A DNA stretch of 64,000 nt from Patescibacteria group bacterium (GTDB lineage: Bacteria; Patescibacteriota; Patescibacteriia; 2-12-FULL-60-25): assembly GCA_028688515.1 (NCBI GenBank), contig JAQTXZ010000002.1, positions 25,791 through 89,790 of the forward strand, read 5' to 3'. The translations under genes and the position numbers were made by a program. Shown here piece by piece: positions 5,444 to 62,679 of this stretch; position 1 is the stretch's first letter; each line of letters begins with the position of its first letter. The notes under the pieces are model-generated. The model was given only the letters and a program-made list of their open reading frames with translations, ran no database searches and was not told the DNA's origin.

Positions 5444-5474
5444 GCAGGCTTGGCCTGCATCTTCACCCCGTCGC

Positions 5475-5512
5475 AAGCCGCGTAACTCGTTCTGAGTTAC
5501 GCGGCTTTTCAG
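5475..5512 (+). terminator. intrinsic terminator
   Basis: GCCGCGTAACTC-gttc-GAGTTACGCGGC hairpin followed by TTTTCAGTTTT. Confidence 0.6.
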
Positions 5513-5753
5513 TTTTAAAATAATATTCAGGTATCCCTCGGGATTCGGTTTTTGGGGTTCGGGTGATGAAATAGAAATCCCCCGTATGTACGGACAGGTC
5601 GAGACCTGTCTATACACACGGGGGATTACCTCCTACCGGATCAACAAGGCTTTTAACGTTGTTGAACGATCGCCGCCAAGCATGGGTGCGGCGAACGCAT
5701 CATTTTTCTCATGCCGCGAGATTATCGTCAATAGAGAACGGTGGATAAAATTT

Positions 5754-5843
5754 ATAATTAAGAATTATGAATTAAGAATTATGAATTTTGGAAGTGACAT
5801 TCGATATTCGATATTCAGCGAAGCGGATATTCGATATTCGACG
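5754..5843 (+). repeat. composite AT-rich repeat element: (AATTAAGAATTATGAATT)n + (GATATTCAGCGAAGCGGATATTC)n
   Basis: Same two-part element in inverted orientation at 13798-13911. Partial copies at 13219-13255, 22751-22806 and 36691-36723. Confidence 0.85.
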
Positions 5844-7568
5844 TCAGATTGAGAGCGGCGGTTTTGGTTCATTGTTGTTCACTTCGTTTGTACGTTGTGA
5901 CAATCCTCTGTCATCCTGCGACAGTCCGTCTTTGGAGGAAGCGGAGTCCGACGAAGTCGAAGGATCTGGATCAACTTTAATCAAATTCTCCGGTTCGTGC
6001 GCACTCGGATCATCTATTTTTTTATTCATGTCCGCAAAATTTATTTTTTTACCCAAACCCATACCCATCAGCGGCACCGTTGGCGATGAACTTGATAAAT
6101 CTTTCGAACGTTCGGGCAAAGTCGGCGTCTCTTGCCACTTAAAAATTATGAATCCGATGATGGCCAAGACTATCAGTGCGAGAATAGAAAGCAATATCAC
6201 TTGCGAGCCAAAAGACAAGTGTGGAAGTTTGTTCAGAATGCCGTTTATCGTCGATGACGCGGATGATGCAAATGAACTCGATGCCTTTTGCGGTGATTGG
6301 GTTTGATTGTTTGCAACATTCATCGGTTCGGTGCCTGCAAATCTGCCGTCCCACTGTGCGAGAAGCCGTCGGTCATTGGCAGAAAGCCTGTTGTCACCGT
6401 ACGGATCAGTATTGGTGATGTTGTTTGGATCATCCTGCAAACTGTTTTCGCCTTTTTGCGCAGCCAACTTTCGCAAAAACTGAAAATGCTTGTCGAGCGT
6501 AGATTGTACGGCAGATGACCTTTGATCAATCGGCATGGCAAGCAATTTAGCAACGGCGCCGCGATAACGTTCGGGGCGTTGTTGCATTGCGATGCACGCG
6601 GCGTTATCCCCTTGAGGGACTTGAAAACTTGCGCTGTAAAGCTCCATAGCCTGCATGTTTTGTTTATCGCCCTGCAGGGACGAAAGAATGCCGACTGAAA
6701 TCGTTTCGTACATGTTGTTCCACCAGGTTGCAAGCGGCAATACCTCTCCGTGGCATGGCGTCAGATCCAAAAGAGCGCGATGTAGTTCGATGTAGGCTTG
6801 AGGATTGGTATTATTGGCGCGCCACGCGTCCAAACCCTGTTCGTAATACGCCATGTTTTCCAAATTTGCCAATTGCCAAAAGACATCCGGTGCGGCCTGT
6901 AAATCTTTTTCGTTGAAAGTCCAAGACGTGTTTTTGCCGGAGTAAATAATTGGAATCATCGTCGGGTCGGCTTTAAGTTCGCGTAAAGCCACGTTCCAAT
7001 TGGCTGTTGTAAATGCAAAAAATGCCTCAATAGTTCCTGTGTTTATGTTTCCCGACCAGGCACGTCCGGTTTGAAATGCAAAAGGCACATTGTCTCCCGC
7101 AAGCGGCTGCAGCGCACGAACGTCCACGATGGCGTCAGCATCTTTTGCGACAGTCAAATTAAAAGAAACGGATGAAATCGGACTCGTAACGCCGAAATAA
7201 TTTTTATTTCGCATTTTACCAATAGGTTGCTCTCTGCCATTGACGTATATCGTCGTGATAACGGGAACTTCGTCTTCCGGCCCCGGGGTCGGGATCGAGA
7301 CCTCGATGTTTTGCGTCGCTGCAGGATTATGTAAACGATAAGTCATCTGCACGGGCACTGCTTGCGCACTTTTGCCTGTACCAATTTGATCAAAACGATA
7401 TGTTACGCGCATCTCGGCAACCTCGATGGGAGATTTTAGCCCGGTACCGATCATACCAAGCTGCATCAATGGCAAGCTCGTTTCCTGTGCTTTGACGGGC
7501 AGTGTGGATGCTGCTGTCAGTCCCAGCGTGAAGATGGAACAGATAAGGGCGGTGAGGATTTTTTTCAT
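5844..7568 (-). CDS. secreted, C-terminally anchored hypothetical protein
   Basis: Signal peptide MKKILTALICSIFTLGLTAASTLPVKAQ. C-terminal TM helix ILLSILALIVLAIIGFIIF followed by a Ser/Asp/Pro-rich tail. Confidence 0.7.
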   Translation of the reverse strand: MKKILTALICSIFTLGLTAASTLPVKAQETSLPLMQLGMIGTGLKSPIEVAEMRVTYRFDQIGTGKSAQAVPVQMTYRLHNPAATQNIEVSIPTPGPEDEVPVITTIYVNGREQPIGKMRNKNYFGVTSPISSVSFNLTVAKDADAIVDVRALQPLAGDNVPFAFQTGRAWSGNINTGTIEAFFAFTTANWNVALRELKADPTMIPIIYSGKNTSWTFNEKDLQAAPDVFWQLANLENMAYYEQGLDAWRANNTNPQAYIELHRALLDLTPCHGEVLPLATWWNNMYETISVGILSSLQGDKQNMQAMELYSASFQVPQGDNAACIAMQQRPERYRGAVAKLLAMPIDQRSSAVQSTLDKHFQFLRKLAAQKGENSLQDDPNNITNTDPYGDNRLSANDRRLLAQWDGRFAGTEPMNVANNQTQSPQKASSSFASSASSTINGILNKLPHLSFGSQVILLSILALIVLAIIGFIIFKWQETPTLPERSKDLSSSSPTVPLMGMGLGKKINFADMNKKIDDPSAHEPENLIKVDPDPSTSSDSASSKDGLSQDDRGLSQRTNEVNNNEPKPPLSI

Positions 7569-49830: not shown

Positions 49831-49929
49831 GCCGTGTTCGTAAGCTTCTCCGGTCGATCTCCAAGATCGGCTTTTTTTGTAAAAATAGGAATGAATTTTG
49901 CGTGGATTTGTCGGTTGTTATCTGATTTC

Positions 49930-50065
49930 GTATACCGTCTAGGTATATGTGAAGTCGGCTGAAGTGAAGGCGGTAAAATTGAACTGTGCTCTACCGCCGT
50001 AACGGAAGCCGATTTGGGCGTAGCTGGGCGTTAGCCACAACGCAGGCACATATACCTTGTTGTAC
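49930..50065 (-). repeat. attC-like site A (distal, partly degenerate)
   Basis: Plus strand: ATTTCGTATACC-G-TCTAGGTATATGTG...CACATATACC-TT-GTTGTAC-GATGT. Confidence 0.55.
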
Positions 50066-50087
50066 GATGTTGTTGTGAAAATTTATT

Positions 50088-50792
50088 TCATTTCTTTGCA
50101 ATAATAAGTGCAGTGTTCAAATGCTCATAAGCAACACTAATTTCCGAAAAGCCTGCCTCCTTCAGCCAGTCAATTTGATCCTCAATCGGGGCAAGCAAGT
50201 TCAGAAATTTATGATGATAAGCCCATTCTTTAAGTGATGGTTCGTTGCGAGCATGTTCGACTAGGTGATGAAAATGCTGAGCATCATTAATGGCCGCCTT
50301 GGTTTTAGCTTTGTACGTGACTAAATCACCAAATATGAACACACCGCCAGACTTTAAAGAGCCGTAGATTTTTCTGAACAATTTTTTCTTACCTTCGTCT
50401 TTCTGATGATGGATACCAATAACAGATATAACCATATCGAAGTCGTCATCCAGGTTAATTTCAGCATAATCACCTAGGATATATGCGACGTTGTATTTTG
50501 ATAATCGCTTTTTTGCTCCGTCCATCATTTTTTCAGAAAAATCTACAGCCGTTAATGATGCGGTCGGGATAAGTTTCAGTATCTTTTCTGAAGTAAGCCC
50601 GGTTCCAATACCAAGCTCCAATATTCTTTCAACCTTGTTAGAAGCAATATACTCACGGGCGACCTCCTCAAATTTTTTATGCAGCTCATCATGACCTGGT
50701 ATTGAACGGCGAATATCATCGTCATAAATTTCTGACTCATACGAATCATAATTTAGATCGCCCGCAGCAACATTTGTGGTTCGATCATCCAT
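50088..50792 (-). CDS. cassette gene: class I SAM-dependent methyltransferase
   Basis: Motif I ILELGIGTGLTS and post-I AVDFS. Paralogue of 51691..52383 and 40239..40946. Confidence 0.8.
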   Translation of the reverse strand: MDDRTTNVAAGDLNYDSYESEIYDDDIRRSIPGHDELHKKFEEVAREYIASNKVERILELGIGTGLTSEKILKLIPTASLTAVDFSEKMMDGAKKRLSKYNVAYILGDYAEINLDDDFDMVISVIGIHHQKDEGKKKLFRKIYGSLKSGGVFIFGDLVTYKAKTKAAINDAQHFHHLVEHARNEPSLKEWAYHHKFLNLLAPIEDQIDWLKEAGFSEISVAYEHLNTALIIAKK

Positions 50793-50844
50793 ATTGTTAT
50801 TGCAAAGAAATGAATTGATAAGAGTAAATTTTCACAACAATTTC

Positions 50845-50983
50845 GTACAACGTTTCTGAATATCTGAAGTTTGCCAAAATTCCTTTAAAAATCAATTAGT
50901 TTTGGCAAATTTGGGTGAAGATATTTTGCATTCCTTAGCTTTTAATTGTGAAAAATTCCTGAACCGGATATGCCGTGTTATGT
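50845..50983 (-). repeat. attC-like site B
   Basis: ATTTC-GTACAAC-GTTT-CTGAATATCTGAAG...CCGGATATGCC-GT-GTTATGT-GATGT. Confidence 0.65.
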
Positions 50984-52383: not shown

Positions 52384-52414
52384 GAAAATTAATTTAGTTT
52401 TTGTGGCATATTTC

Positions 52415-52491
52415 GCCTAACGTTTCCGAGTATCTGATGTTGCGAAGCAATATGGGTGGAGCGAAGCGGAACCAGATACTCGGTGTTGTAC
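52415..52491 (-). repeat. attC-like site D
   Basis: ATTTC-GCCTAAC-GTTT-CCGAGTATCTG...CAGATACTCGG-T-GTTGTAC-GATGT. Confidence 0.8.
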
Positions 52492-52618
52492 GATGTAGAT
52501 TTTTTATCGTCGTCTTTAGTGGTACTTACGATATTTATTTTAAAAGAAAATTTGATTTTTTGTTTTGAAAAATTAAAGAGGGGTAGGGGGTGAATTTCAT
52601 TTTTCAAAGCTTATTATT

Positions 52619-53545
52619 CTACTTCTCAAGTAAGGGTCTTTGAAGCTCTGGGTTATTTTCGTCGATTTCGGCCATTTTATTTACTGGTATCAAATCAGCT
52701 ATAGATTCTTCACGTTTCCAATTTTGTAAAATATCCCAAATATTTCCTTCGCCAATGTAATCCATAGTTAGCTCACTTCTTTTTGCTTCATATTGCGGAT
52801 AAAGTACACTTTGCGGGTCTTTGATAAATCTTTCAGCAAAATCTTCTGTCCCATTGTAAACATCAGTAATCCATTCGGGTCTCAAGTCTAGTGTGTTTAC
52901 TTCTTTTTCCATTTCAATATTCATAGTTTTGAAGAGAGGATGAACTATTACATCATCGGAAGGTATAGAAAATTCAACAACAGGAAGTCCCTCTTTGTGA
53001 CCAGTGCGTGATTCAGCGGGATTGTGAGGGGGTTGATAAGAAGCTCCGACTGAGACTGAATTAAGTCCTGTCAAGCCCGGAAAATCACCACCGGGACCAA
53101 TATGCAGTTTGAATAATTTAATTCGAGGTATTTTGTGTTGAACAAAATTTCGATAACTATCTAATGAAAAATTGTCTGATAATTCAGCAAAGTCTTTTTC
53201 AAGTTGTGCGTAAATATCCTCTTGTTCAAGAAAACTTCGTAACGCATCTTTAATTCGTTTCGAATTTTTTTGAAAAGATTCTGCCGCATTAGGATTCTCC
53301 AAAACTGCATTTTGGGGATGGTTTAAAATTGCATTCAGTTCTTCATAACTAACCAATCTAAAATATCTGACAGGATTACCTTTGCTATCCTTGTCGGCGG
53401 CGGTTAGTATTTCCCGCTTACGTTCCTCTGGAAATAGATTGCGGGTTAACGATATTCTTTCTTCAATTGATGTGTCGGTAGCAGTAAGGCGAGAAATTAG
53501 AACATTTCGATTAATGTTTTCTGGCGTTGGCATTGCTTCGTTCAT
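52619..53545 (-). CDS. cassette gene: hypothetical protein
   Basis: 308-aa ORF bounded by sites D and E. No motif recognised. Confidence 0.6.
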   Translation of the reverse strand: MNEAMPTPENINRNVLISRLTATDTSIEERISLTRNLFPEERKREILTAADKDSKGNPVRYFRLVSYEELNAILNHPQNAVLENPNAAESFQKNSKRIKDALRSFLEQEDIYAQLEKDFAELSDNFSLDSYRNFVQHKIPRIKLFKLHIGPGGDFPGLTGLNSVSVGASYQPPHNPAESRTGHKEGLPVVEFSIPSDDVIVHPLFKTMNIEMEKEVNTLDLRPEWITDVYNGTEDFAERFIKDPQSVLYPQYEAKRSELTMDYIGEGNIWDILQNWKREESIADLIPVNKMAEIDENNPELQRPLLEK

Positions 53546-53638
53546 AAACCCCTTTATTATATTATTAAAAAAATGAAATTTTCTGTCTTTTTAAAATCAT
53601 TTAAACCCTATTTTACCACGAGATAAAAAATTTATTTC

Positions 53639-54256
53639 GTACAACGTTTCCGAATATCTGAAGTTGCGCCCGTGTTTATTGGTTAAAACTTCAAACATTC
53701 TACTATCTTAATTATATCACTAAACTTTGTTTTATCACAGCGCAATTTGAGTGGAACAGAAAAGAAAATCACAAATATTTTCCTTATTTTAAGCCCTTTT
53801 TTTGAATTTTTTGAAAGTGCTATGGACAAAGACTGAAAAATATGCTATAGTCTAGTGTCCAGTGGATTTCCCGCTGGCATACCTTACAAAGGAGGACATT
53901 ATGAGGATCGCTTTTCTTCTGGTAGCATTGTGGAATACGGTGGTGGCAGCAATTAACGTCAATATATTGCCGTTGTATATGTCACCGGAAGCCATGGTAT
54001 ATGTAACACCGTTATCACAGCTTCTTCCAATCTGTATACCACTCGTAATTGCGGCAGCATTGCCAAGTGGAGGCAATTCAATCACGCTCAACGACCTTCG
54101 CAAATGTTTGTCGTAAGCAATTCACGACTTACCCCCTGGTGGAATCTATTTCTACCAAGGGCTCTTTTTTTCAAAAAATTCAAAAAAAGGGCCATATAAA
54201 TTGTAAAAAATATTTGTGATTTTCTTTTCTGTGTAACCAGATATTCGGTGTTAGAT
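53639..54256 (-). repeat. attC-like site E, interrupted or expanded by a 477-bp IR-flanked module
   Basis: Left half ATTTC-GTACAAC-GTTT-CCGAATATCTG. Right half CAGATATTCGG-T-GTTAGAT-GATGT. The two halves are 590 bp apart. Confidence 0.55.
53901..54116 (+). CDS. small 2-TM hydrophobic protein inside site E (reverse orientation, own promoter and SD)
   Basis: ATG is 6 nt after AAAGGAGGA. TGGACA-17-TATAGT lies upstream (about 53823-53850). MRIAFLLVALWNTVVAAINVNILPLY.... Confidence 0.5.
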   Translation: MRIAFLLVALWNTVVAAINVNILPLYMSPEAMVYVTPLSQLLPICIPLVIAAALPSGGNSITLNDLRKCLS

Positions 54257-54355
54257 GATGTTTTGCCGACTCTGCAAGCTACAAATTACTTTATTGGAAC
54301 AAACTTTTTATCTGCACGAACATTTTTTAGTTTCTATATTACAAGGCGAAATTTC

Positions 54356-54422
54356 ATCTAACGTCATCGCGATATCTGACGTTTTAATGTGGCGAAGCCC
54401 TTGCAGATATCGCGTGTTAGGC
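54356..54422 (-). repeat. attC-like site F
   Basis: ATTTC-ATCTAAC-GTCAT-CGCGATATCTG...CAGATATCGCG-T-GTTAGGC-GATGT. Confidence 0.8.
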
Positions 54423-54439
54423 GATGTAAAGCCCAAAAA

Positions 54440-55309
54440 TTAATTTATAACCGCCATTAATGTTCTTTCTTTGCCAAATTTATTATAATCTTCTTTTGCT
54501 AAGGATAGACTATACGGAACGAAGGCTTGATCAATTAAACTTTCTGTTTTTTGATAAATGGTTTCAAAAAATTTTTTGTGTTGCACCGTGGCTTCAAAAC
54601 CATCCGTGTAAAAAACCACCAAATCTCCCTTGCTTAATCCGATTTCTCCAAAATTCATAAACTTTTCAGCTTCATTTTCACCGGTTAATGCGCCGTAAGA
54701 AACACATTTATTTTCAACGATTTTTTTGGCGTTGTTTCTATATTCAGACCTGATCATCTTGCGGTACTTAGGCATGGCAAAATTGAAATCGGATTTTTGC
54801 AGATTTGATTTTTCATATTCTTCAAACGTCTTCATCCAATTCGGTGTCTGAAATTTAATTTTGCCATTTTTATCATAAACAATAATTCCACAGTCACATA
54901 TTCCAGCCCAGAATAGTTTGCCGTTATAAATAATTCCACCACTGGCAACGCAGCCAAAAAAATCATTTATCAAGTAATCAACTTTTTTAGTATTGTCTTT
55001 GTTCAACTCGGCAATCTTTTTATTTCCAAAAATAAATGCGTTTCTGATTGTTTTTAATGAAGGAATTTTGTTATCTAGAGATTTTACAAACGATTCACAA
55101 AAAATATCAGCTGAAAAACGGGCACCACTTGGATTTGGATAATTTTTCAGAGAATCTTCTATGGACAAGTTTGTAAAATCTTTTGGAGAAATTGGATCTC
55201 GTGTAATTCCATCGGCAACACAAAAAATTTTTCCATCAACCATCATTGAATCTTCCGGAGGCATTAGATGTCCGTATAATAAATTTGGCAAAGATACTTT
55301 ATAAATCAT
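54440..55309 (-). CDS. cassette gene: PP2C/SpoIIE-like phosphatase-fold protein (tentative)
   Basis: FCVADGITRD and VVFYTDGFEA resemble the two Asp-containing PP2C motifs. Confidence 0.4.
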   Translation of the reverse strand: MIYKVSLPNLLYGHLMPPEDSMMVDGKIFCVADGITRDPISPKDFTNLSIEDSLKNYPNPSGARFSADIFCESFVKSLDNKIPSLKTIRNAFIFGNKKIAELNKDNTKKVDYLINDFFGCVASGGIIYNGKLFWAGICDCGIIVYDKNGKIKFQTPNWMKTFEEYEKSNLQKSDFNFAMPKYRKMIRSEYRNNAKKIVENKCVSYGALTGENEAEKFMNFGEIGLSKGDLVVFYTDGFEATVQHKKFFETIYQKTESLIDQAFVPYSLSLAKEDYNKFGKERTLMAVIN

Positions 55310-55333
55310 AAATTAATTTTTGGGCTTTATTTC

Positions 55334-55451
55334 GTCTAACGTTCCGGGCTATGCGAAGACCGCCTCAAGCGGTTTTGGGTGAGCGTCCTAATTCGCTTTA
55401 GCTACCTAAATACTAGCAAAACCGTCGCGAACCGCATAGCCCGAGTTAGCT
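55334..55451 (-). repeat. attC-like site G
   Basis: ATTTC-GTCTAAC-GTTC-CGGGCTATGCG...CGCATAGCCCG-A-GTTAGCT-GAAGT. Confidence 0.75.
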
Positions 55452-55673
55452 GAAGTATTCCTTTTCTTTTTTCCTTGATTTTACTGTTAAAATTTTTAAA
55501 TTTCTTTTTCTTTTCTGTGTGGAGGGCAAGAGGGGAAATAAAGGGGTGAATTGCCCGGAGCTACTAAAAAACTTTACTACATATAAAAAGGAAGGGGTTT
55601 AGGTTGGGGGTGGGGTGGGGTGGGGTGCTTTTTATTTAGGTTTGATTCCTAAAATTTTAATGTAAACTTACAG

Positions 55674-61552: not shown

Positions 61553-61863
61553 ACATTCAATATATTCCTCCAATTACATTAATAAATCAAGATATTAATA
61601 TAAAATTAGATTTTCGTAGAAACTCCTTATAACCCCCTCTAAAATTAAATCCCAACATTATGAAAAGAAAAAGAAATTTGAAAATTTTACTAAATGGCTT
61701 TGTTCGTAGCTAAGAAAAAAGAAAAGGAATATTTCAGCTAACTCTTTTTTATACGAAAACACTTCGTATAGCTATCCACATCTTGCCACTTAGGCGAAAA
61801 AATGTATAGAATGGATTAGGTGTGAAGAGTTGACGGCCTCACTAATTATTAAAGTGAGGTTTT

Positions 61864-62679
61864 ATGTTAGATGAACAATTGAAGCGGACGTCGGACGAGA
61901 TGGTTTTGCGTAATTACAGTCAAAAAACGGTTAAGGCGTATGTTGGTTGTATTGAGGATTATCTAAGTCAGAATCAAGCGGACTTATATTGGTGTGATAT
62001 CGAGGCGATCCGTCAATTTTTGCTGGAGAAGCAGTCAAGAGGGTTGGCGCCGCAGACTATCAATCTATATCTAAACGCCATAAAGTTTTATTATCGTGAT
62101 GTTTTGCATTTAGGCGACACGATCAATCTAAAATTCGCTAAACGCTCGAAGAAGCTACCGGTTGTTCTGTCGAAAAGCGAAGTTTTACGAATCATTGACG
62201 CTGTCAGCAATCCAAAACATAAAGCGATGATCGCTTTGGCATACGGTGCCGGCCTTCGTGTTAGCGAGGTCGTTAAATTGCGGATCGGGGACTTGAATTT
62301 GGAGGAGTTGACCATCCATCTCAAGCAAGCAAAGGGAAACAAAGATCGGATTACCATCTTGTCTGCATCTATAGTAAATGATTTAAGACGGTTGATGACT
62401 GGAAGGTTGGTCGGCGATTTTGTGTTTGCCAGTGAACGCGGAGGGAGATTGACGGAGAGGACGGCGCAAAAGATTTTTGAACATGCCCTTAAAGCCGCCC
62501 GAATCGGTCGGGGAGCGACATTTCATTCGTTGAGGCACAGCTTCGCGACTCATCTTTTGGAAAATGGAGTTGATGTCAGGTACGTTCAGGAACTTCTTGG
62601 TCACCAGAATATTCGGACTACGCAGATTTATACGCACATAACCAATCCGGCGATGCGGCGGATTGTAAGTCCGCTATGA
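61864..62679 (+). CDS. tyrosine recombinase, IntI-like but without the IntI-specific insertion
   Basis: N-terminal SAM-like YSQKTVKAYVGCIEDYL. Catalytic contexts AGLRVSE (R), HSLRHSFATH (H-x-x-R) and LLGHQNIRTTQIYTH (H...Y). C-terminal ...RRIVSPL resembles IntI1 ...GVRSPL. Confidence 0.9.
   Translation: MLDEQLKRTSDEMVLRNYSQKTVKAYVGCIEDYLSQNQADLYWCDIEAIRQFLLEKQSRGLAPQTINLYLNAIKFYYRDVLHLGDTINLKFAKRSKKLPVVLSKSEVLRIIDAVSNPKHKAMIALAYGAGLRVSEVVKLRIGDLNLEELTIHLKQAKGNKDRITILSASIVNDLRRLMTGRLVGDFVFASERGGRLTERTAQKIFEHALKAARIGRGATFHSLRHSFATHLLENGVDVRYVQELLGHQNIRTTQIYTHITNPAMRRIVSPL

Follow-up and report, generated by a model that had tools for sequence, protein, structure and literature searches.

A probable mobile cassette with its only gene nested inside an attC-like recombination site in an integron-like array of a Patescibacteria genome

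The 64,000-nt stretch of DNA analysed here, referred to throughout as the window, comprises positions 25,791-89,790 of contig JAQTXZ010000002.1 (assembly GCA_028688515.1) from a Patescibacteria group bacterium, whose small genome of 1.29 Mb is a metagenome-type assembly in 4 contigs and 99% complete. The region at ~49.9-61.8 kb of the window is an integron-like array, and our subject is one unit of it, a 717-bp stretch read on the - strand (53645..54361) that consists of a short non-coding leader and an attC-like recombination site, here called site E, with a small membrane-protein gene nested in it. From the sequence comparisons reported below we consider it likely that 53645-54361 constitutes one mobile cassette of the array, the only gene of which lies inside its own recombination site rather than upstream of it.

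The array, site E and the nested gene

The array stands out from the rest of the window by a G+C content of 35%, as against 45-60% elsewhere. Seven sites of the same design are found in the window (at 49925, 50840, 51496, 52410, 53634, 54349 and 55329), and the open reading frames (ORFs) between them are all on the - strand. At the array head, outside the cassette, an Xer/IntI-like tyrosine recombinase of 271 aa is encoded on the + strand (61864..62679; PF00589 at 2.9e-45), and a ComEC gene comes after it; an attI-like site lies at about 61736-61790. With the recombinase at its right-hand end and its genes on the - strand, the array runs from right to left, and the small + strand gene in site E is therefore opposed to it, as the first-pass annotation of this DNA had held. 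Reading the array on the + strand, with the 308-aa gene and site E as one cassette, was considered and rejected: the sequence of site E is constant and it is the left neighbour that changes, exactly at the R box, and the recombinase is at the right. The best match of the recombinase in the profile scan was NF040815, with 215.9 bits against a cut-off of 220. TIGR02249 gave 206.7 bits against a cut-off of 265 in a match split in two stretches, from which it follows that the IntI-specific insertion is missing. A homologue in another array (L075, 5884-6792) is longer, at 308 aa; its alignment with the 271-aa enzyme spans 303 columns, and the ~35 residues that it has in excess could be the IntI-specific insertion that is absent from the window enzyme.

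The attC-like sites of the lineage have a common layout, which on the + strand reads ATTTC, R box, 4 nt, L box, AAGTT, a first hairpin (hp1), AATTTGGGTGGA, a second hairpin (hp2), GAAC, L box, 1 nt, R box and GATGT. Site E begins on the + strand with the R box GTACAAC (53639..53645; R' = GTTGTAC in array direction), which varies from locus to locus with conserved sequence to its right and is complementary to the GTTGTAC of site D at 52485-52491. There follow the L-box half CCGAATATCTG (53650..53660), an 88-nt hp1 (53661..53748) with the folded stem AAGTTGCGC / GCGCAATTT, and the linker GAGTGGA (53749..53755), which corresponds to the lineage-wide motif AATTTGGGTGGA. Beyond hp2, the site closes with the L-box half CAGATATTCGG (54238..54248) and an R box read from the sequence as GTTAGAT (54250..54256; R'' = ATCTAAC in array direction), all on the + strand. 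The spacers between R and L boxes are asymmetric, 4 nt against 1 nt, and the L-box halves, identified in an inverted-repeat search, are complementary at 11/11 positions. In array direction the R boxes of site E are thus ATCTAAC (54256-54250) and GTTGTAC (53645-53639), the latter an imperfect match to the GTTRRRY core; they are chained with sites D and F, and R-box complementarity in this way links the site E cassette to the neighbouring cassettes.

The hp2 of site E is a 477-bp module delimited by a bipartite inverted repeat of 61/64 nt. Its outer arms of 26 nt (53756..53781 and 54207..54232, + strand) form the hp2 stem, and its inner arms of 24 nt (53793..53816 and 54169..54192, + strand) are A/T-rich on the left; both pairs are 100% complementary and are separated by an unmatched gap of 11 nt on the left and 14 nt on the right. 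The left gap is a bulge, CCTTATTTTAA (53782..53792, + strand), without equivalent in the right arm. The L-box halves and the two-part repeat had been described in the first-pass annotation, and the coordinates and the complementarity given there were reproduced. With the module, site E measures 628 bp, and without it 151 bp. In the minimum-free-energy single-strand fold, whichever strand is taken, the L boxes, the hp1 stem and both repeat arms are paired. Apart from its two arms, the 26-mer is absent from the window at <=3 mismatches, and it gave 0 matches in 100 dinucleotide-preserving shuffles; neither arm has a further copy in the 1.29-Mb genome at <=4 mismatches, which settles, for this genome, the earlier question of other copies of the repeat ends.

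Between the repeats lies what appears to be a complete expression unit on the + strand. A promoter scan recognised TGGACA-17-(TG)CTATAGT at 53823..53851 with 10/12 matches and a TG extension, the Shine-Dalgarno sequence AGGAGG (53890..53895) stands 5 nt before the ATG, and the 71-aa gene (53901..54116) encodes a protein with two long hydrophobic helices, for which a protein family, a dN/dS estimate and a structural model are given below. The gene is followed on the same strand by a terminator-like hairpin at about 54132..54171, CCCCCTGGTGGAA...TTCTACCAAGGG and then CTCTTTTTTT, which was read from the sequence and is present in the fold; a consensus intrinsic-terminator scan did not flag it. 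Promoter, Shine-Dalgarno sequence and ORF were all found where the first-pass annotation had placed them. The left inner arm of the repeat covers about -40 to -65 of the cargo promoter, and a role as an UP element may be inferred for it from this position and its A/T-richness. A second promoter-like site, GTGATA-16-TATAAT with TG (10/12), is contained in hp1 on the - strand, from 53738 to 53711, and is aimed at the gene of the next cassette (52619-53545). Its core TGATATAAT is nearly invariant in the eight frames that were aligned (see below), which suggests that the attC loops of this family carry a putative restart promoter for the downstream cassette.

The short sites of this family use GCGAAGC-type sequences for hp1 and/or hp2 (site D, 52410-52496; site F, 54349-54425; and ~1093-1200 of L028), the two mini-hairpins being separated by a conserved AAT(A/T)TGGGTGGA linker; in site D both hairpins are of this type. 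GCGAAGC is a classic, very stable DNA mini-hairpin. Long terminal inverted repeats of 27-73 nt that extend the R-box stem outward are also present in ordinary cassettes of the array (55443-55515 and 61662-61744; 50059-50107 / 50794-50851; 54416-54448 / 55308-55340), and genes of the array are consequently found in hairpin loops to either side of the R/L stem. A string of 15 nt, TTTTCTTTTCTGTGT, is common to the right end of the module (~54222-54236) and the inner end of the repeat of the 6.3-kb cassette (~55507-55521).

Recurrence, boundaries and constraint of the frame

The closest relative of the gene is on an 846-bp metagenome contig, L038, which has the same site E, the same module, the Shine-Dalgarno sequence also kept, and a protein 60% identical to the 71-aa protein. 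Outside this pair, the frame, by which we mean the ~95-nt leader, the R and L boxes, hp1, the GGGTGGA linker and the bipartite repeat, was found with other genes in its hp2. In a genome of the same genus (G001) the same attC-loop architecture holds a different cargo gene of 87 aa, and in one of another family of the same class (G137) the frame carries a 53-aa cargo. When metagenomes were scanned with a degenerate pattern taken from the left arm, 45 loci matched, 19 of which are true frames with other cargo. Besides the window and L038, the frame is thereby documented in 19 metagenome contigs and 2 reference genomes; with the window and L038 counted in and near-duplicates removed, these amount to 16 distinct cassettes, whose cargo comprises 13 unrelated genes of 48 to ~125 aa, seven of them coding for small membrane or lipoprotein-like proteins and six for soluble ones. 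The repeats are not unique to this locus, a case that the first-pass annotation had allowed for, and recur in >20 other contigs. Nothing above cut-off was obtained with Pfam for the 12 other cargo proteins. An exact-pattern scan of the reference genomes returned only G001; an hp1-motif search over 400 genomes of the class returned only G137, with a pattern so strict that it misses the window's own site. Three pattern matches in viral contigs did not include a frame.

Complete modules measure 444-561 bp, with one of 1485 bp in which an IS481-like element is inserted. This element, with a 314-aa transposase (rve + HTH_28), occupies the cargo promoter region of one frame, and L049, L051 and L076 are alike in this respect. 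In all intact cargos a TTGACA-like hexamer stands 8-13 nt past the inner repeat and the gene is opposite to the array; the unusual -35 hexamer TGGACA is common to the window and L038, and all other intact frames have TTGACA. Most cargo genes have an AGGAGG-type site, and the right boundaries that were read consist of a GC-rich stretch and a T-run against the other inner repeat, Shine-Dalgarno sequences and terminators having been read in most of the cargo genes and not checked in all. A GC-rich hairpin with a T-run is found at the place of the window's terminator-like hairpin in L014, L045, L058 and the other right arms compared. The variable region has sharp boundaries, which fall at GAAA| and |TTTC in the inner repeat, and the left-arm bulge is kept in every frame. 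One cargo family (42% identical) is present in two different frame subtypes. The module of L045 (~5449-5905) is chimeric, with a left L box CGGCATCATGCG and a type-2-like outer arm on one side and a right L box CAGATATTCGG and a type-1 arm on the other; its L boxes no longer pair, and it looks like the product of a recombination between two frames inside the module.

Homologues of the window's recombinase with 44-76% identity are known from five other arrays (L050/81, L075/80, L045, L052 and L028), where they too lie on the right-hand side of the module and on the + strand. The last of these belongs to a second, unrelated case of a gene within an attC loop: in G018 and G051, a further attC with this layout contains a 113-aa Cupin_2 gene in its hp2 (L029 960-1420, G018:C3; L028 580-1070, G051:C27), bracketed by a different 26-nt inverted repeat. 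The orientation of this gene is that of the array, neither a promoter nor a Shine-Dalgarno site is obvious for it, and the recombinase beside it is 76% identical to that of the window over the first 119 residues.

The limits of the cassette can be read from the points at which the flanks of these loci diverge. On the left, similarity breaks at ..AA|C (53644/53645) in 8 loci, the frames aligning from the next base on, and the R box to the left of the frame takes the forms GTACAAC, ACATAAC, CGATAAC, ATCTAAC and others. On the right, the break is at ..TAA|C of site F (54361/54362) in 7 loci. Similarity to between 7 and 10 other loci stops at the R-box crossovers, and since both flanks diverge exactly at R boxes the 717-bp unit behaves as a mobile cassette. 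The frame adjoins an attI-like palindrome in L052 and L057; in a classical integron, new cassettes enter next to attI. The stretch between sites E and F (54257..54361, - strand; ~95-105 nt) is best read as the leader of the site E cassette, and an 18-nt imperfect repeat marks its ends (54250-54267 / 54345-54362). It may serve as a small RNA, as a binding site for a protein or as a promoter. The leader (TTTTGCCGA...TAAATTACAAA...ACAAGGCGAAATTTC) is conserved in L050/81, L052, L061, L068, L083, L045 and G137, other frames have a different short leader, and no conserved ORF was found in this cassette body.

Sites of the same kind that lack a cargo were also recovered, among them the homologue of site E without insert that the first-pass annotation had proposed as a comparison. 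This site, in the sister genome G018, is 81% identical to site E over the first 116 nt and has AAAATTTCAC-TTTCCTTAATTTTATCATAATAG-TGTGAAATTT where the module would be, with the stem AAAATTTCAC/GTGAAATTT. A cargo-free site that neighbours the frame of the metagenome contig L058 has the stem GGGAAAATCAC/GTGATTTTCCC. Both are 10-11 bp versions of the outer-arm stem, and site B of the window is a degenerate version of such a cargo-free hp2. The bulge of the left arm is represented in the loop of the G018 hairpin (TTTCCTTAATTTTATC), its CCTTATTTTA matching the loop motif of the empty hairpins (CCTTA..TTTTA). By the evidence of these three cargo-free sites (G018, L058 and site B), the outer repeat is a lengthened form of the native hp2 stem.

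The frame is constrained, to judge from the comparison of the window with L038: nucleotide identity is 93% in the left repeat arm, 83% in the left half of the attC, 76% in the promoter and 5' untranslated region and 67% in the ORF, at synonymous sites close to saturation. Pairing is maintained as well. In eight frames, 98.9% of the alignment cells of the L stem are paired, with 3 of its 11 pairs changed on both sides; for the outer repeat the figures are 100% and 9 of 26 pairs, and for the inner repeat 88% and 5 of 24. None of 500 shuffles reached these pairing values. The columns of the hp1 stem are invariant and hence uninformative for pairing. Across frames, the subtype of the repeat co-varies with that of the L box.

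The protein, the proposed mechanism and its alternatives

By prediction from its sequence, the 71-aa protein is small and integral to the membrane; it is conserved, and elsewhere an ordinary chromosomal gene encodes it. A word-based search found two direct homologues, and a profile search of 1.84 billion representative proteins gave 27 clusters at E <= 0.001, 13 of them at E <= 1e-10, all of 55-120 aa; some relatives of 115-120 aa have an added C-terminal extension. The alignment reveals a conserved polar family motif, A-WNT-V-A-IN-..LP...E....TP-SQ-LPI-IP. Between the window and L038 the proportion of differing synonymous sites (pS) is 0.69 and that of nonsynonymous sites (pN) 0.30, with dN/dS ~0.2. 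The existence of a conserved family and this ratio show the ORF to be a real gene under purifying selection, contrary to the possibility, allowed for at first, that it would be conserved nowhere. An AlphaFold2 model with a mean confidence (pLDDT) of 90.9 has helices at residues 2-21, 29-32, 37-53 and 63-70, two long and two short; a fold search of the Protein Data Bank with this model gave no match (best E-value 9.5), and no match to the protein was found in Pfam, NCBIfam, PHROG or PADLOC. The other family members are single chromosomal genes among housekeeping genes in other contigs, their neighbours being RF-1 and FtsEX, a Mur ligase, ScpAB and AspRS, or a phosphomannomutase-like hydrolase, and at least one chromosomal relative is equipped with a promoter and a terminator of its own. 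In L039 (2780-3207), a Patescibacteria contig from groundwater, a family member directly follows the gene of a 61-aa, zinc-ribbon-like protein with two CxxC pairs, with which it is apparently co-transcribed and which is a possible partner. The gene is single-copy in this genome, and a paralogue search found none in 60 relatives, which makes it an acquired accessory gene here. The family deserves attention in its own right as a conserved, uncharacterised group of small membrane proteins.

If the unit is a cassette of the proposed kind, the recombinase would move the whole of it by way of the folded, single-stranded R/L stem, and the long repeat would hold the 477-nt payload folded on itself. 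The payload would be expressed from its own sigma-70-type promoter wherever the cassette sits in the array. Transcription that reads through from the array would yield RNA antisense to the payload, in which a 60-bp hairpin could form, so that the module might act as an insulator, and the promoter-like site of hp1 would restart transcription on the - strand toward the 52619-53545 gene. A module of this design would join a gene in reverse orientation, expressed wherever it is placed, to a likely restart promoter that serves the next cassette. A thermodynamic clamp role of the long repeat was also considered, and equilibrium folding does not support it; a benefit of the repeat would have to be kinetic.

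Several observations weigh against interpreting the unit as a mobile cassette built around its hairpin. The probability of L-stem pairing in the single-strand ensemble is 0.99 for the native sequence, 0.94-0.98 once the right arm is shuffled and 0.97-0.99 when the module is removed, and since the L stem pairs even when the arm is shuffled or the module absent, equilibrium folding does not need the repeat. The both-sided changes stem from about 2-3 lineages, and two-sided binding of a protein to the terminal repeats would give the same pattern of pairs. The L boxes of site E pair perfectly and contain no extrahelical base, although the related G018 site may have one bulged base; in canonical attC sites, extrahelical bases in the L stem set the choice of strand. 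The absence of the IntI insertion from the recombinase, together with scores below both curated cut-offs, means that the term integron is used here by analogy. At 628 bp (151 bp without the module), site E also falls outside the range of 57-141 bp of described attC sites, and the exchange of cargo within a conserved frame is left without an explanation.

This exchange would be accounted for if the hp2 loop were a docking position at which whole monocistronic units, from upstream of the -35 hexamer to the T-run of the terminator, are captured and exchanged, a proposal that we regard as tentative and on balance doubtful. It is based on the 13 unrelated cargos that share one frame with sharp boundaries and a -35 hexamer at a near-constant 8-13 nt from the repeat, on the GC-rich stretch and T-run that end all cargos in which the right boundary was read, on the existence of cargo-free hp2 sites and on the chimeric L045. 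If correct, docking would amount to a second-order arrangement, a cassette within a cassette, in which genes are loaded into ready-made, gene-less attC cassettes, and it would offer a testable route for the birth of integron cassettes, which is a long-standing question. The sharp and conserved cargo boundaries provide a handle on such loading of genes into cassettes.

The first-pass annotation had favoured an addiction module, in which the 71-aa protein would be a type I-like membrane toxin that stabilises the array under the control of an antisense RNA. The protein is indeed small, hydrophobic, opposite to the array and, by its predicted promoter, self-expressed; about half of the cargo genes in sister frames likewise code for small membrane proteins, and read-through from the array would by inference yield a full-length antisense transcript of the gene. 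Self-promoted toxin-antitoxin cassettes are moreover reported to stabilise chromosomal integrons (PMC8876359). The suggested check for an antisense RNA was carried out by prediction: the promoter scan returned no - strand promoter within or 3' of the 71-aa ORF, and Rfam gave no match at E <= 1 over 53500-54450 and none at the gathering threshold in the region, which excludes a group II intron, a known antitoxin RNA and other described RNAs. Type I toxins usually have under 60 aa, one transmembrane helix and an antisense RNA antitoxin with its own promoter; the present protein appears to differ from them in its 71 residues, its two long helices and its conserved polar motif, with relatives of 55-120 aa. 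Its relatives are chromosomal singletons in housekeeping contexts, six soluble cargo families occupy the same frame, and the RNAs of leader and frame are independent of the cargo and cannot be a cargo-specific antitoxin. Together with the absence of matches in PADLOC and the other protein databases named above, these results make a toxin improbable.

An independent transposon similar to a miniature inverted-repeat transposable element (MITE), with a passenger gene, directed to the hp2 loop and mobilised in trans by an unidentified transposase, is likewise unlikely. In its favour, the terminal repeats are long and perfect and have a distinct 24-nt inner pair, the cargo-free sites resemble empty targets, the cargo differs within the same repeats and L045 combines arms of two subtypes. 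Elements that target attC sites are known, IS1111-attC elements being among them; group IIC-attC introns are another example (PMC8876359). Against such a transposon stands the absence of a target-site duplication, both at the flanks of the module (GAGTGGA|ACAG...CTGT|GTAACC) and in 12 other complete modules, and the presence of a single genomic locus even at 4 mismatches. No frame was found outside an attC or at another position within one, nor among the viral-contig pattern matches, and no transposase shares these ends. The tie between repeat and L-box subtypes is as expected of one co-evolving unit, and the outer arm and the stem of the native hp2 are homologous. Of the earlier suggestion of a MITE-like insertion into an attC loop there thus remains that the unit occupies the loop of a pre-existing hairpin; the lack of a duplication, the single copy and the fixed position speak against the transposon itself.

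It is very improbable that the repeats are sites of a DNA invertase that flips the promoter-gene segment. Inverted repeats do flank a promoter segment and a tyrosine recombinase is encoded nearby, yet the promoter end (in L049, the IS481-like element) is always at the arm with the CCTTATT bulge, 0 of 16 cassettes are flipped, and inversion of a unit with its own promoter and terminator would leave expression unchanged. A decaying long attC loop, or an assembly artefact driven by repeats, which can mislead assemblers in a metagenome-type assembly of 4 contigs, with a chance ORF, hardly deserves consideration, since the same architecture is present in >20 independently assembled contigs from >=15 datasets, the ORF is conserved under purifying selection, and promoter, Shine-Dalgarno sequence and terminator are in the right order and spacing.

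Relation to known cassettes and attC-associated elements

Taken as a mobile cassette with a nested gene, the site E unit resembles integron attC sites in its RYYYAAC / GTTRRRY-type boxes chained between cassettes, its complementary L boxes with an asymmetric 4/1-nt spacer and its branched variable loop, and further in the divergent tyrosine recombinase with an attI-like site and in boundaries at the G|TT crossover. In described attC sites, the length range cited above goes with a variable terminal structure of 3 nt up to a branched form and with a gene upstream of the site (PMC5371416); here, the only gene of the cassette lies inside the variable terminal structure. The L boxes without extrahelical base, the recombinase without IntI-specific insertion and with scores below the cut-offs, and the Patescibacteria host are further differences. 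An incomplete literature search returned no paper on integron arrays in Patescibacteria, and none in which the variable terminal structure holds an entire promoter-gene-terminator unit. Already described are promoters borne by cassettes, toxin-antitoxin cassettes, promoter cassettes that lack an ORF, group IIC-attC introns and short ORFs within attC (PMC8876359, PMC11014356).

The gene-less promoter cassettes of Vibrionaceae superintegrons (Blanco et al. 2024, PMC11014356) are similar in that the normal ORF position is empty, being taken up by a ~100-nt leader in our case, and in the presence of promoter-like sites on both strands, one of them toward the downstream cassette. They differ in that the predicted antisense-strand promoter here would drive a conserved protein gene with its own terminator, and in that both predicted promoters are inside the attC loop and not in the cassette body. 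The reverse toxin-antitoxin cassettes of sedentary chromosomal integrons (PMC8876359) have in common with the site E unit a gene of opposite orientation with its own promoter and, as far as can be predicted, position-independent expression, whereas the gene of the present unit stands alone inside the attC, neither an antitoxin gene nor an antisense RNA having been detected, and many unrelated cargo genes occur in its frame.

Group IIC-attC introns and IS1111-attC elements also place extra DNA within attC in reverse orientation, and an outward promoter that restarts downstream cassettes has been reported for the introns (PMC8876359). In contrast to these elements, the present unit has no ribozyme, reverse transcriptase, transposase or Rfam match, measures 477 bp and is bounded by long repeats that extend the native hairpin. 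MITEs share with it the small size and the long terminal inverted repeats, and differ in that the unit carries a gene, shows no target duplication and is single-copy at one fixed location.

Integron cassettes are defined as a gene followed by attC, and search tools built on that definition assume a short attC; cassettes of the type described here would therefore escape detection, and inventories in uncultured lineages are probably incomplete. The architecture also indicates that a folded recombination site may tolerate a payload of ~0.5 kb, or 1.5 kb with the insertion sequence, if this is bracketed by a long stem. Measured against the known systems, the site E unit is by analogy an integron-type cassette, with the caveats of the missing IntI insertion, a length beyond the known range and the lack of an extrahelical base, and a small gene nested in the attC hairpin is a recurring and, as it appears, undescribed way of packaging a mobile gene cassette.

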